A DNA stretch of 63,189 nucleotides, filler included, from Octopus bimaculoides (taxonomy: Eukaryota): the NCBI RefSeq assembly GCF_001194135.2. It is 4 parts of 4 records of this genome, joined end to end, with 100 filler letters (N's around TTAATTAATTAA, not from the genome) between each part and the next. Parts side by side here need not be neighbours in the genome. Positions count along the whole stretch, not along the records: positions 1 to 31,512 come from NC_068998.1; positions 31,613 to 39,368 come from NC_068989.1; positions 39,469 to 54,942 come from NC_068991.1; positions 55,043 to 63,189 come from NC_069000.1. One strand, given 5' to 3'. The notes under the pieces are model-generated. The model saw nothing but the letters and a program-made list of their open reading frames with translations, was not told the origin of the DNA and did not search any database. Position 1 is the stretch's first letter, and each line of letters opens with the position of its first letter. Positions 793-63,178 of the stretch are shown here, in pieces. The translations under genes were made by a program, and so were the position numbers.

Positions 793-832
793 TGGGTGAA
801 GACTAGCATCACGTTTGAAACTCAGAGTACCA
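793..832 (+). ncRNA. Degenerate Penelope-type type-I hammerhead motif
   Basis: TGG-GTGAAGA-(14 nt)-GAAAC-TCAGA-GTA-CCA. Stem I is TGG/CCA, stem III is near-palindromic ACTCAGAGT, AATAAA at 842-847, then (TA)n. C3 is mutated and stem II is poor. Confidence 0.5.
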
Positions 833-1337
833 ACGAATTTCAATAAAACCGTTTTCATCTAAATATATATATATATACGTATGTATAATTATAGATGTGC
901 ACATGTGCATGAATGTGTCCTATAGACATGCATGTGTATATATATGTACATGTATATGCTTATATTTCTAATTTATATACTCTCCCTTTCATATATCTGT
1001 GCAAATTTTGTTTTTATGTGCGAAGATACACACAAGGTTTCTTTTTTTTCTCTCTTTATTTCTTTACTTACATAACAGACAAACAATTTGAAAAATATGA
1101 ATTATGAATGCGACATTATTATGATTTAAAATTCTATCCAGAATAATCCAGCAGAAAATGTCTCACCAACTATATAAACCTACAGCTCTTCAACTTGTAA
1201 TTAATTTGATAAGTATCAATGCACGGAACAATTGGACCTTGAGTCACTCTGTTGCTTCCACTAAATATTAATAAAAATATAATATACTCATATTTTGAGT
1301 AATATTTTCCTGTTTGCATTGCCATACCTGAACATAC

Positions 1338-1745
1338 ATGAATGAAGACAGTTGTATAAAGTGCTGATCACTGAGAGAAGATGGCACCTGTGGAAGAGGG
1401 AGACCCAGGAAGACATGGGATGAAGTGGTGAAGAGTGATCTCAGGATGCCTCATGGAGGAGATGATAATGGACCAAGATGTCTGGTAATATGAAGTTCTT
1501 GAGAAGACCTGTCCACTTCAGCAAAATTGAGTTCCACCCACATGTAACAACAAAACTTTTCCACAAACCAACCTACATCAATCCTTTTACTCTTTTCATG
1601 CGCTATGCTTACCTCTTGCTCCCTAACCTTGTCCCCACTGCCCTGCTCAGTGTGTCATTGTTATCCTGTTGTCCCCCACCCCCACACTCTTTCCATTCAT
1701 GTGAAGTCTTTTAATCCCTACTCATACACCTTTGGCAATACCTTA
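1338..1745 (+). mobile_element. RTE LINE 3' ORF-end and 3' UTR fragment
   Basis: Similar to RTE ORF ends at 2500-2690 and 20560-20720 (GTCGRGRPRKTWDEVV), followed by a pyrimidine-rich UTR. Confidence 0.75.
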
Positions 1746-1797
1746 CCATTTATATATATATATATATATATATATATATATACACACACACACACTC

Positions 1798-2098
1798 TTT
1801 TACTTGTTTCAGTCATTTGACTATAGGCATGCTGGGGCACCATGTTAAAGGGTTTTAGTTAAACAAATCAACCCCAGGACTTTTCTTAAAGCCTAGTACT
1901 TATTCTATCTGTCACTTATGCTGAATCGCTAAGTTACAGGAGACATTAAACTGGCTGTGATGGGGGTACAAAAATACACACACACCCACAGATATATACC
2001 AAATCCAATCACAAGGCTATGCTTGGCCTGAGGCTATAACAAAAGACACTTACTGAACCAGTAACCATGTGGTTGGGAAGCTAGCTTGCTACCACAGG
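1798..2098 (-). mobile_element. tRNA-derived SINE (family 1), decayed
   Basis: Reverse complement aligns with the SINE at 14111-14508 (head GCTTCCCAACCACATGG; tail CAAATGACTGAAACAAGTAAAAGA). Confidence 0.8.
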
Positions 2099-2104
2099 AG
2101 GCTC

Positions 2105-58900: not shown

Positions 58901-59213
58901 ACAATAAGAGTTATCAGAAGGCAAAACAAACAAAAAAGGAATATGAAAATCTGAAAAAAAAAAAATTCAACTCTTGAAGGGTTAGATACATTACTTTTAT
59001 GTATGAATACACACACACACATACACACACACAAACTTTTATATATAATACACACACACGTACACACACACATGAACATACACACACACAAATATATATA
59101 CCTATGCATACATGTATAAATACATATCTGTATTTGTATATGCAGATATATTTAAGTATACACACCAACGAACGAACGCACACATGCACATACACACATA
59201 GACACATATATGT

Positions 59214-60030
59214 GGAGGTGTATGGCTTAGTGGTTAGGAGTGGTGCACTCATGATCATAAGATTGTGGTTTTGATTGCTGGACTGGGTGATGCATTTCAC
59301 GTTGCTCCATTCCAGTCGACGGATCTAGTTCAAAACGGGGGCACCAGTATTTTCTTAACGAAACACTTTGAAACTTGGGAAACTGGTAGAATGTGTCATA
59401 TAAAACATCTTTTTCTCTTAGTCTTCTTAAGAAAAATTATTATATTGCAATTTATTTCATGTTAAAGTTGTCGTATTTCTGTAATTTCAACCAATGACTG
59501 ACGTCCATTCAGCCGAATACATTAAGTGCTGACTACGTAAACAAACGATTCTCAAACGATTCTGGCGGTGATAAAATTATTATTTCCTTGTCAAAAAATG
59601 GCTGAAGCATATTGGCAGTAGCTAATAAACCTTTCTATTATAGGCACAAGGCCTGGTTTTTGAGGGAAGGAGCAAGTCAATTAGGGTTAGGGAAAACGAA
59701 CACACATGTGTTGCCTCTCTGCAAAATGTCAGAAGTAATGGAGATTAAATACGCTTTACACTGCTTAAACTGCCAAAGGAGTAACTGTAAACAGCTGAAT
59801 ACTTGTCAGTGATTGGTTGAAATTATCGAAATAAGACAATTTTTTACATGAAATTAATTCGAATACAAAATTTTTTTTTGTGTTCTATAACACAAAATAG
59901 ATAAGTATACGAAGTTTGAAAGTCTTTCGGTACCAAAAACACTACATAAAACATAAATGAAAACTGGTGCCCCCGTTTTGAACTAGATCCCAGTCGACTG
60001 GCAAAATTGGGTAATACTGCGACAGGCCGT
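59214..60030 (+). mobile_element. SINE family 3 interrupted by a MITE
   Basis: Head TGGCTTAGTGGTTAGG; body resumes after 59998 (TGGCAAAATTGGGTAATAC), matching 80-100. Confidence 0.8.
59321..59990. mobile_element. 670-bp MITE, Merlin-like
   Basis: Perfect 28-bp TIRs GGATCTAGTTCAAAACGGGGGCACCAGT and perfect 8-bp TSD CAGTCGAC (59313-59320, 59991-59998). GG termini with an 8-bp TSD fit Merlin/IS1016. Confidence 0.85.
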
Positions 60031-63000
60031 ATGTATGTATGTATGTATGGAGGTAGATATGTAGTTATTTACATTTTTCGCCAATCCGTTGTCCCCCACA
60101 TTAGAGAAGCATAAGATTATATTCTGTCAAATCATTGTGGAAGAATAATTATTTACGCTAGACGTATAATCATAAGACTAATGCAGCAATATTAAAAAAA
60201 AGATATATAATAAAACAAGATTACTTGTTCTGGAAGTGGCAGTTTTATTTTCGTTTATTACTTGATGTCTAATACAGATAATTATTCATACAAAATTCTG
60301 CTGTATGGCGATGTCCCGCCGTGTTTTAAAACAAAAGATTCTAATATACCTATATACATATAGACATTTATATACAAACAGTTATATCCGCATGTATGGA
60401 TGCAGTTCATCCCCTCCCCACACACACACTCACGCATACACACACACGCTCTCTCTCGCCCCCCCCCCCGACATACACTTACACTTTGCGTATGCACGTT
60501 GCCCAGGAGATAGCCAAGGAGAATTTTTAACAGGGACGTAAGCTTGTCTGCAGGAATTAGTAAACCAGAGTATCCGCTGAACCTACCTGAAACAGCAGTT
60601 AAATTTCTTCAAGTTACAGCCTACCACCTTTGAAATGGAAGGGCACATTGTATAATGCAGTCCTATTTATAGAAAAGTCGATACGACTTTTTAGAATAAG
60701 CGTATCTCTTCAGTAACTTTTGAAAAATTTTGTTTTCATTTTTCAATAGTTTTCTAAGAATATTATGTTCCAAGTCTCAGAGATTACAATTCACAAAGAA
60801 AATTACCGAAAATTTTAATTTATTTTTCTGTCCTGCTAAGCAGACTGAGAGGTACGCACCAGACATCATTATCAGAAACAGAAACATAAATAAGACCCAT
60901 ATAGCTATTTATATAAAAGGTACTATTAAAATTGGATGATCGAGTTATATGTGAATTAAATATAGACTTAATTGTTTTCTGGGAAACATTAACAAAAAAC
61001 ATTGTTTTAACGAATAAGATTGAAAATATAGTCCAAGATATTCAGTTCAAAATGATACGGATGGTTAACACGCACTTTACTGTCGTAAGAGAATGAAAAT
61101 AAATTTTCCAGGTAAAAGTAAATTTCAGGAGAAACCGGAAGTGATGACAGTGACATACCAAAATTTCATTAGAACAACATAAAGAACTTCCTCAATATGC
61201 ACGCCTACAGGCACCTACATTCATTGTACATTCTACTGATGTGTTAAGTATTTCAAAAATAGCAGCTCAAGTACACCGTTCCTGCCTACTATACTCAACA
61301 ACAAACACCTTTGAGACAACAATTCGGTTGTTTGCATGTCCACATACGATAGTCACCACAGTTAATATGAGTAATGTTCCTCTCCTGAACGATTAATGAA
61401 CTGTAGAGAAAGAAACGGCAGAAACCGGTGGCATTGCTCCTGTGGATTCACTCAAACTATACGAGCCAATTCCATTTTTTTTTTTTTTGATAAGAGGTAT
61501 TCGAGTTCACCAGTAAATGATTCAAGTATCCGCACAGCGACGTGATTTTCACCTTCAGTTTCTATCGCAGTTTACTTTCATTTTCTAGGGCAATTTACTT
61601 TCACTTTTTTATCACGATAAATGACATGTTAATCTTAGAAATATGATTATATAAATTGGTCAAAGCAGGGTTCACATGTAATTGACGCAATTATTAGAAT
61701 GAATTGTAAAGGAAGTGTTACTGTTAGTGCTTGTTCGTGTGTGTGTGATTGTGTGTGTGTGTGTGTATATACATGCTTCTTTAAGTAGGACGTGCTTACA
61801 ATAGAGACAATAATACACTGCAACATCATATATATATATATATATATATATATANNNNNNNNNNNNNNNNNNNNNNNNNNNNNNNNNNNNNNNNNNNNNN
61901 NNNNNNNNNNNNNNNNNNNNNNNNNNNNNNNNNNNNNNNNNNNNNNNNNNNNNNNNNNNNNNNNNNNNNNNNNNNNNNNNNNNNNNNNNNNNNNNNNNNN
62001 NNNNNNNNNNNNNNNNNNNNNNNNNNNNNNNNNNNNNNNNNNNNNNNNNNNNNNNNNNNNNNNNNNNNNNNNNNNNNNNNNNNNNNNNNNNNNNNNNNNN
62101 NNNNNNNNNNNNNNNNNNNNNNNNNNNNNNNNNNNNNNNNNNNNNNNNNNNNNNNNNNNNNNNNNNNNNNNNNNNNNNNNNNNNNNNNNNNNNNNNNNNN
62201 NNNNNNNNNNNNNNNNNNNNNNNNNNNNNNNNNNNNNNNNNNNNNNNNNNNNNNNNNNNNNNNNNNNNNNNNNNNNNNNNNNNNNNNNNNNNNNNNNNNN
62301 NNNNNNNNNNNNNNNNNNNNNNNNNNNNNNNNNNNNNNNNNNNNNNNNNNNNNNNNNNNNNNNNNNNNNNNNNNNNNNNNTATATAGAGAGAGAGAGAGA
62401 GAGAGATAGATAGATAGATAGATAGATATAGACACACACACAATTTACATGTGTTTTTATACATACATACATCTATATATATGTGTGTGTGTGTGTTTAT
62501 ATATATATATATATATACACACACACACACACACATGTATACATACATTTAATATCTATGAGGTTTGTACGTGTATGTGTGTGTGTGTGCTTGTGCGTGA
62601 AAGTGTGCATGTGTCTATAGTTAAAGAAATAAACGTGCCAAAACTGAGACAAAAATAATGGACGAAGCATGGGAAATACTGCAAGAGAACGATATGAAAT
62701 GGATAGCTTCTGAAAATGAGAAACGAATGTGGCTTTTGGATGGGAATGACGTCAATTGCCTGCTGCACATGCGTTAGAATGAATTGATACAAGTACCGTT
62801 GTATTGAAAACGACACTCTAATATTGTTACTTTGTACCCGTATTGTTCCTACGCATACACTATACGACATGATGGAAGTTCAGATCGAGCATGTATGTAT
62901 GTATGTTATATATGTGTGTATGTATATATGAATGTTTATATATAGGTATATAGTTATGTATATTTATATTAATATACATAAATGCATGTATGTATGCGTA

Positions 63001-63144
63001 TATATATATATATATATATATATATATATATATATATACCGGAGTAAGCACATAAAATGTGCAACAAGGTGGAAAAAAGAGTACTCCAATACCAGAGGTA
63101 GAGTAATATGCTTTATTTAAAAGCAGCAGAAATGTAACAAAAGA

Positions 63145-63178
63145 CTGTTACTCGGAGTTTCACGTTCCCGTTCATCGA
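63145..63178 (-). ncRNA. Hammerhead motif cut by a perfect palindrome; element ~63040-63189
   Basis: (TC)GATGA-ACG-GGAA-CGT-GAAAC-TCCGA-GTA-ACAG, with AATAAA downstream, then (TA)n. 63164-63189 is a perfect 26-bp palindrome. Confidence 0.65.

Follow-up and report, generated by a model that had tools for sequence, protein, structure and literature searches.

A 63,189-nt window of Octopus bimaculoides DNA, by which we mean the whole stretch analysed (parts of NC_068998.1, NC_068989.1, NC_068991.1 and NC_069000.1 joined end to end), contains a set of motifs that occurs above chance and matches the self-cutting hammerhead RNA motif of Penelope-like elements (PLEs). These are probably minimal type-I hammerheads of PLE terminal repeats, likely inserted as 3' ends, belonging to at least eight families and nearly all decayed and likely unable to cut. 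Most are likely inactive leftovers of short repeats spread by PLEs; mobilisation by PLE proteins, the position of priming and the inactivity are what we infer. The set is a published kind of motif, extended here to an octopod.

Hammerhead motifs in the window

Both strands were scanned for type-I motifs, taken as GAAAC..GUH with a palindromic stem III and with the stems scored, and counts were compared with 300 dinucleotide shuffles in 300-nt blocks. Runs of N (6,590 N in this repeat-rich animal DNA) and microsatellites were kept in place, and the descriptor was devised with the candidates already seen. Loci are named by the start coordinate of the core, e.g. 35040(-) and 37103. With no more than one core mismatch, a palindromic GAAAC..GUH and a stem I of at least 3 bp, we found 9 loci against a shuffled mean of 0.37 (standard deviation 0.60, maximum 3), and none of the 300 shuffles reached 9. 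Requiring in addition a stem II of at least 3 bp left 6 loci versus 0.11 in shuffles, and a perfect core with any stems gave 2 loci versus 0.21, a count reached in 7 of the 300 shuffles. Stem I was present in 9 of 13 core matches compared with 0.37 of 4.19 in the shuffles. Seven of the nine descriptor loci (796, 3863, 10607, 35040(-), 35237, 37103, 45897) had been listed in the original prediction, made from the sequence alone, and 58850(-) had not. A descriptor match at 24061(-) lies within the coding sequence of a long interspersed nuclear element (LINE) and was taken as chance. The surroundings of the ten predicted loci, which form no part of the descriptor, were likewise enriched: (TA)4 or longer lay within 110 nt downstream at 7 of 10 (background 0.109, p = 2e-5, with the threshold set after seeing the data) and AATAAA within 40 nt at 4 of 10 (+13, +7, +10, +32; background 0.045, p = 7e-4).

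The individual motifs were less intact than predicted. An exact CUGANGA was observed at four of the ten sites (10607, 12474, 35040(-), 35237), and the core CUGANGA/GAAA/NUH was unaltered in two, 35040(-) and 35237(+). Five loci carry one core change, namely 796 (C3G), 3863 (U4A), 10607 (H17=G), and 37103 and 45897 (both A6U), while 26611 has two and 12474 and 63145(-) are half motifs. By descriptor, stem I measured 3-6 bp at seven of the ten loci, and at 26611 it was 5 bp by eye, lengths that fit the 2-6 bp of PLE minimal hammerheads. Stem II with G10.1-C11.1 was present in 37103 and 45897 (both with an unpaired A) and in 35040(-), partial in 3863 and 26611, and failing in 796, 10607 and 35237. 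The palindromic 15.1-16.1 segment, itself part of the descriptor, was found in all nine loci having a 3' half. Only 35040(-) combined an unaltered core with all three stems (4-bp stem I, 5 of 6 pairs in stem II, ACAUGU and GUU). The 26611 motif, missed by the descriptor, showed by eye a 5-bp offset stem I and 7 of 8 pairs in stem II. At 37103 we observed a 5-bp stem I, an unpaired A, a 4-bp stem II, an ACGU palindrome and the core CUGUUGA; an alternative register, UUGAAGA at 37106, gave 1 bp in stem I and 2 in stem II, versus 5 and 4, and was dropped. The position of the 5' core (CUGANGA) at 63145(-) would fall beyond the window edge.

The original prediction of ten minimal hammerheads is thus right in that the set is real and its frequency exceeds the shuffled background, but only two cores are unaltered and one motif is complete. 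Its term ribozyme-bearing was overstated, as nine of the ten are incomplete or miss one or more required features, and A6U is fixed in the abundant family described below. The Rfam model RF00163 (Hammerhead_1) matched only at 35000-35046(-), with 15.6 bits against a cut-off of 34 (E 0.92); no hammerhead was returned for 36560-37225, and none was among the 150 of 180 matches listed for the whole window, which included microsatellite-driven microRNA matches. Folding z-scores were unremarkable in 10 of 11 motifs. Relaxed motifs were dense, with about 10 across the 56.6 kb of called bases, and the strict count was 1-2.

Families, the PLE remnant and an abundant repeat

When each locus was compared sensitively with the rest of the window, the ten split into eight families without relation to one another, two of them with two copies each (37103/45897 and 10607/12474) and six with a single locus. 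Copies 37103 and 45897 can be aligned along almost their full length with microsatellites on either side, and those at 10607 and 12474 start at the same base after TATATA. Both copies in each two-copy family therefore have a common 5' boundary at a TA tract. Tails of 33-110 nt lead to (TA)n at six loci, and one further locus is broken by TA. No tRNA genes, as expected for the head of a tRNA-derived short interspersed nuclear element (SINE), were found in the window, and an A-box pattern had 2 exact matches, at chance level and neither in these elements; decayed boxes would escape exact matching. Tandem units with complete hammerheads, the mark of retrozymes, were absent from the window, where only the partial tandem at 10407-10796 with one damaged motif was seen.

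A 5'-truncated, broken Penelope-like open reading frame with stops and frameshifts (Table 1) lies behind (TA)15 at 24221-24250. It is collinear with relatives of 759-911 aa bearing a longer cysteine linker; tblastn to one of them (P0009) gave E values of 1e-25 and 5e-23, and over one third of its length the nuclease fragment shows 86% identity to a protein of Octopus bimaculoides. Pfam had no match for the fragments or for the long relatives, so the assignment to PLEs is based on the order of the domains and on their motifs, following PMC8557442. The CxC linker, together with the longer cysteine linker of the relatives, is as described for Neptune and Nematis and differs from that of Anolis Poseidon; a (TA)n bias has been reported for PLEs with a cysteine linker (PMC8557442). 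The decayed 26611 motif lies about 530 nt behind this remnant of reverse transcriptase (RT) thumb, CxC linker and GIY-YIG domain. Scans of viral and metagenome contigs with the PLE protein gave no loci. A long Asn-rich stretch was also observed between RT thumb and linker (24766-25521, +), and relative P0002 has similar stretches.

Several claims of the original prediction were upheld by these results. Several families are present (eight among ten loci), most motifs sit beside (TA)n, four have AATAAA shortly downstream, and only one of ten, 26611, is attached to PLE coding sequence. The proposed PLE origin is well supported by the match to the published consensus, by the motif behind the RT/GIY-YIG remnant and by the tails ending at (TA)n. 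The description as short non-coding elements holds for two of the eight families by their common 5' boundary at TA, whereas the five other solo loci are possibly plain 5'-truncated PLE tails.

The 37103 family was followed in public sequencing runs by mapping reads to 37038-37226 at 80% likeness in 4 of 24 listed runs (DNA X1 and X4, RNA X21 and X22). Runs with a small share of matches, from termite, insect and seawater metagenomes, were left aside and carry no weight here. Matches were found in 9,196 (X1) and 10,407 (X4) contigs, most with at least 95% identity, and the longest listed contig had a depth of 48. Summed depth was 1.9-3.4 million from 37059 to 37205, and such depth is no copy number; as a rough estimate, the family may have tens of thousands of copies. 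Depth dropped similarly at both stretch ends and showed no drop over the 65 nt preceding the core; in X22, loose ends before 37041 were (TA)n. The mapping tables hold per-site letters only. At position 6 (37106) no letter other than U reached the 5% listing threshold, so U stands in more than 95% of mapped depth; H17 varied only between C and T (T 33%), and U4 was A in 5% (X1). A scan for the 37103/45897 pattern gave 0 matches in viral and 0 in metagenome contigs.

In the RNA runs, 3,178 of 12.9 million (X21) and 3,055 of 12.0 million (X22) records matched, or about 0.025%, and about half of the matched reads (0.51, 0.46) extended into unlike sequence. No pile-up of starts or ends was seen at the cut site or at any other place, a weak test with unstranded, fragmented libraries of which about 6% was read. 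Two reads in each of X21 and X22 (4 of ~6,200) showed head-to-tail joints with an (AT)n spacer, and such a joint also occurred in DNA run X4; small circular RNAs may be lost in standard libraries. These observations fit a young repeat of unit length that travels within host transcripts, and they show no sign of cutting. Letters that differed in RNA alone, at 37121, 37127 and 37166, were considered as editing and dropped, as there was no matched DNA and the 37166 reads had many other differences.

Table 1. Hammerhead-related features and the PLE remnant, in window coordinates.
Feature	Position	Strand	Details
Decayed minimal hammerhead	793..862	+	C3G, no stem II, ACUC-A-GAGU, GUA; AATAAA at +13; 33-nt tail to (TA)n
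Decayed hammerhead	3857..3975	+	U4A, 6-bp stem I, 57-nt stem II region, ACGGUCGU, GUA; 37-nt tail to (TA)n
Partial tandem	10407..10796	+	Tail copy 10407-10552, short TA spacer, then ~240-nt unit
~240-nt unit at the 10407 locus		+	Body 10558-10606; motif 10604-10643 (exact CUGANGA, H17=G, no stem II); tail to 10796
Second copy, 10607 family	12425..12480	+	5' half only; (TA)n break directly after CUGAUGA
5'-truncated broken Penelope-like open reading frame	24359..26084	+	YRDD, RT thumb, Asn-rich stretch, CxC linker, VVY..YIG GIY-YIG domain
Decayed hammerhead in PLE 3' region	26605..26660	+	C3G at 26611, G12 apparently lost, ACAAUUGU, GUA; by eye
Sole complete minimal hammerhead	34948..35044	-	CUGAAGA 35040-35034, stems I-III, GUU at 35006; AATAAA at +7; 58-nt tail to TA
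Hammerhead, intact core	35232..35370	+	4-bp offset stem I, degenerate long stem II, ACAAUUGU, GUC; AATAAA at +10; tail continues into TG/TATG microsatellite
Extra candidate	36786..36925	-	CUGAGGA at 36921, 5-bp stem II, GAAA, damaged stem III; looser scan without null model
~190-nt high-copy repeat between TA tracts	37038..37225	+	Minimal hammerhead 37098-37134
Older copy of 37103 family (~72% alike)	45842..46025	+	Core CUGUGGA (A6U); 101-nt tail to TA
Extra candidate, uncertain	58804..58856	-	CUGAUAA (G8A), 6-bp stem I, ACAAUUGU, GUA, weak stem II; descriptor
3' half of probable hammerhead	63039..63189	-	11-bp hairpin, GAAAC, ACUC-C-GAGU, GUA at 63149; AATAAA at +32; 110-nt tail to (TA)n

Known elements, activity and competing explanations

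According to Cervera & De la Pena (2014, PMC4209133), animal genomes, those of molluscs among them, each carry minimal hammerheads by the thousand; these fall into many families, are mainly solo copies and probably derive from truncated PLEs. The same study describes opposite-strand pairs, a U3-A8 variant and AU-rich 3' flanks, includes Lottia and Crassostrea in its alignment, and gives in its supplement the consensus U-rich, stem I, CUGANGAH, G..C, GAAAN palindrome NUH, AU-rich. The octopus motifs share with it the type-I topology, the short stem I, the unpaired base before G10.1-C11.1, the palindromic 15-16 segment and the U- or AU-rich flanks, as well as the many families, mostly solo copies and opposite-strand pairs 100-700 bp apart (here 35040-/35237+). 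In contrast, A6U was not found in the sections of that alignment covered here, and CUGUUGA and octopus had 0 text matches in the supplement. Comparing the strict count in the window (1-2) with the published counts would require the descriptor of that study.

In the Poseidon PLE of Anolis carolinensis the cut site lies at +26 and reverse transcription starts at +111-118, ~85-92 nt downstream (Frangieh et al. 2024, PMC11167929). Its nuclease prefers AT-rich DNA, core mutations leave insertion in vitro unimpaired, and the ribozyme needs protein to cut; no RNA-seq ends fall at the cut site (PMC11167929). Poseidon and our elements have in common AT-rich targets, a motif with a tail of defined length behind it and no RNA-seq ends at the cut site, but Poseidon is autonomous and its core is intact and protein-assisted. 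Non-LTR (long terminal repeat) retrozymes (PMC7229834; 10.64898/2026.07.22.740005) are likewise short non-coding units with a type-I hammerhead and dispersed monomers, proposed to be non-autonomous PLE derivatives, as are short hammerhead units and dispersed monomers generally in the preprint of Li, Clavereau & Pollet (2026; 10.64898/2026.07.22.740005). The unit lengths of 190-245 nt fall inside the retrozyme range of 51-972 bp. Unlike retrozymes, the window holds no array with two complete motifs, (TA)n bounds the units, the core of the abundant family is changed, and no evidence of circular RNA was found. The elements therefore appear to work like a PLE terminal repeat and fit that family in most testable features, and they lack the tandem motifs of retrozymes.

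A loss of cutting is likely in the 37103 family. A6C, a change at the same catalytic-core position in phage Bcep176, lowers Mg2+-dependent cleavage (PMC3088659, PMC7151607), and by analogy U6 would cripple it; that variant has C, a single phage copy and a full stem III, whereas U6 here occurs in thousands of contigs of an animal repeat. Since the family is abundant although A6U is fixed in it, it likely spreads independently of self-cleavage, and it is likely a Penelope-mobilised, TA-bounded repeat spreading without cutting. The complete motif at 35040(-) is also likely silent, since it has no partner of its own family in the window and single minimal hammerheads are inactive in vitro (PMC4209133). 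Folding energies gave inactivity no support: a lock of the core by pairing of U6 with A15.1 formed a helix in the monomer fold with a probability of only ~0.24 in the whole element, and the energy gap to the hammerhead dimer was 13.2 kcal/mol with U6 versus 14.6 with A6, so this idea was dropped. The role of PLE hammerheads is an open question in the literature (PMC8557442, PMC11167929).

We propose that a PLE protein would bind RNA around the motif and nick AT-rich or (TA)n DNA. Reverse transcription would begin 30-110 nt downstream of the cut site, and the 33-110-nt tails would represent such internal starts. Each insertion would then retain the whole motif and a tail ending at (TA)n, with most copies truncated or short. 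Insertion into (TA)n would leave a copy flanked by UA runs in read-through RNA, so that a short copy could itself become a template for unit-length copies. At least one family (37103/45897), and probably 10607/12474 too, may in this way have turned into a unit-length, non-coding, TA-bounded repeat, the 37103/45897 type likely being copied in trans from read-through transcripts. More tentatively, octopods may harbour SINE-like, promoterless, TA-bounded Penelope parasites of ~190-250 nt that have kept the hammerhead fold as a putative binding site for the PLE protein and dropped catalysis.

All copies could instead be 5'-truncated tails of autonomous PLEs, with 5' boundaries formed where RT stopped at a (TA)n tract within the parent 3' region; we hold this to be possible but doubtful. 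Truncated solo motifs are the published default (PMC4209133; Li et al. preprint), 26611 is such a case, and five solo loci are known from the window alone. However, apart from the edge effect at both ends, the depth of the 37103 family stays steady over the 65 nt before the core, its upstream loose ends are (TA)n, both two-copy families have their common 5' boundary, and no autonomous parent fixed for U6 was seen. The (AT)n-spaced joints in RNA and the partial tandem at 10407-10796 would also suit monomeric offspring of active non-LTR retrozymes, whose arrays would be transcribed, cut as dimers, circularised and reinserted, with the U6 core cutting with protein or another metal ion. The restriction of H17 to C and U, the Anolis hammerhead that cut only with protein added (PMC11167929) and the cutting of A6C in Mn2+ point the same way. 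We nevertheless regard this origin as unlikely, given the lack of start or end pile-ups in RNA, the low share of matched RNA reads, about half of which continue into unlike sequence as expected within host transcripts, the joint present in DNA as well, and the 8 of 9 Xenopus retrozyme dimers uncut in vitro (Li et al. preprint).

Chance matches in AT-rich, repeat-rich sequence are a very improbable source of the motifs and are refuted for the set. The match in LINE coding sequence, the lack of an Rfam match above cut-off, the unremarkable folding z-scores and the absence of a convincing stem II at 796, 10607 and 58850 would be expected of chance, but no shuffle reached the observed count in the tiers allowing one core mismatch, stem I accompanied the core far more often than in shuffles, and the TA and AATAAA context was enriched.

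Some points weigh against our own interpretation of short repeats spread by PLEs without cutting. No short element in the window is homologous to the PLE 3' region, so that no parent was identified, and a longer parent of the 37103 family may extend upstream of the TA tract. The inactivity of A6U is extrapolated from A6C, and given the library type little weight attaches to the missing RNA ends at the cut site. Families were compared within the window, and the 37103 family alone also in public runs, leaving seven of the eight families limited to the window. Other letters reached at least 10% at 1 of 37 motif sites versus 9 of 78 tail sites (p = 0.11), so conservation of the motif was not significantly higher.

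Repeat annotation of O. vulgaris assigns 6.83% of the genome to Penelope-like elements and lists 893 recently active 'unclassified SINE' families, and the sections of that report covered here never mention ribozymes (PMC13282606). No report of these elements was found in titles and abstract openings of the literature on octopus or cephalopod hammerheads, on A6U, or on octopus SINEs and ribozymes. Lunse et al. reportedly describe about 150,000 PLE-associated variants, which may already cover octopus or position 6. The A6U family is the one lead of wider value: being young, very abundant and changed in its core, it would show directly if spread depends on cleavage, and 37103-type families could help classify octopus repeats. 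If the proposal of Penelope parasites is true, the 37103 family, with roughly tens of thousands of copies and U6, would be a natural experiment in PLE mobilisation in vivo without self-cleavage, and such families may explain part of the 'unclassified SINEs' in octopus repeat libraries.

Host gene and other features

A PRMT3-like gene was found on the minus strand, where four exons (27090-~26890, 7721-7572, 6072-5980, 5857-5750) represent its last four coding exons, one of them 84% identical to an Argonauta protein. The search up to 63189 gave no earlier PRMT3-like exon, so either an intron exceeds 36 kb or scaffolds are joined here. On this basis introns likely hold eight of the ten loci, and the other two are downstream of the final coding exon. 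The 35040(-) motif is sense to the PRMT3-like pre-mRNA. Six of the eight intronic loci are antisense to the host gene (p = 0.29), and no strand bias is claimed.

The palindrome ACAAUUGU is common to 58850(-), 26611 and 35237. At the extra candidate in 36786-36925 (-), the 3' half of the motif is amplified as a tandem array of a 17-mer with ~5 copies. Several decayed LINE copies (endonuclease, RT and a PHD-finger match) occupy 15123-24086 and 1338-2695, with a 66-bp tandem array (20865-21170) at the end of one. A degenerate (TTAGGG)n tract at 11756-11844 adjoins a rearranged repeat with inverted pieces (10874-11768). A Spin-doc-type zinc finger fragment at 27676-27993 (-), matching Pfam zf-C2H2_12 below cut-off, is probably a DNA-transposon remnant, and the translation of 4253-4710 (-), without a Pfam match, resembles a mariner transposase fragment in a motif. 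Another abundant short repeat without a hammerhead match was observed in five copies (1748-1945, 14272-14503, 33669-33905, 39539-39788, 44690-44851), and a fragment resembling it adjoins the tail of the 35040(-) element.

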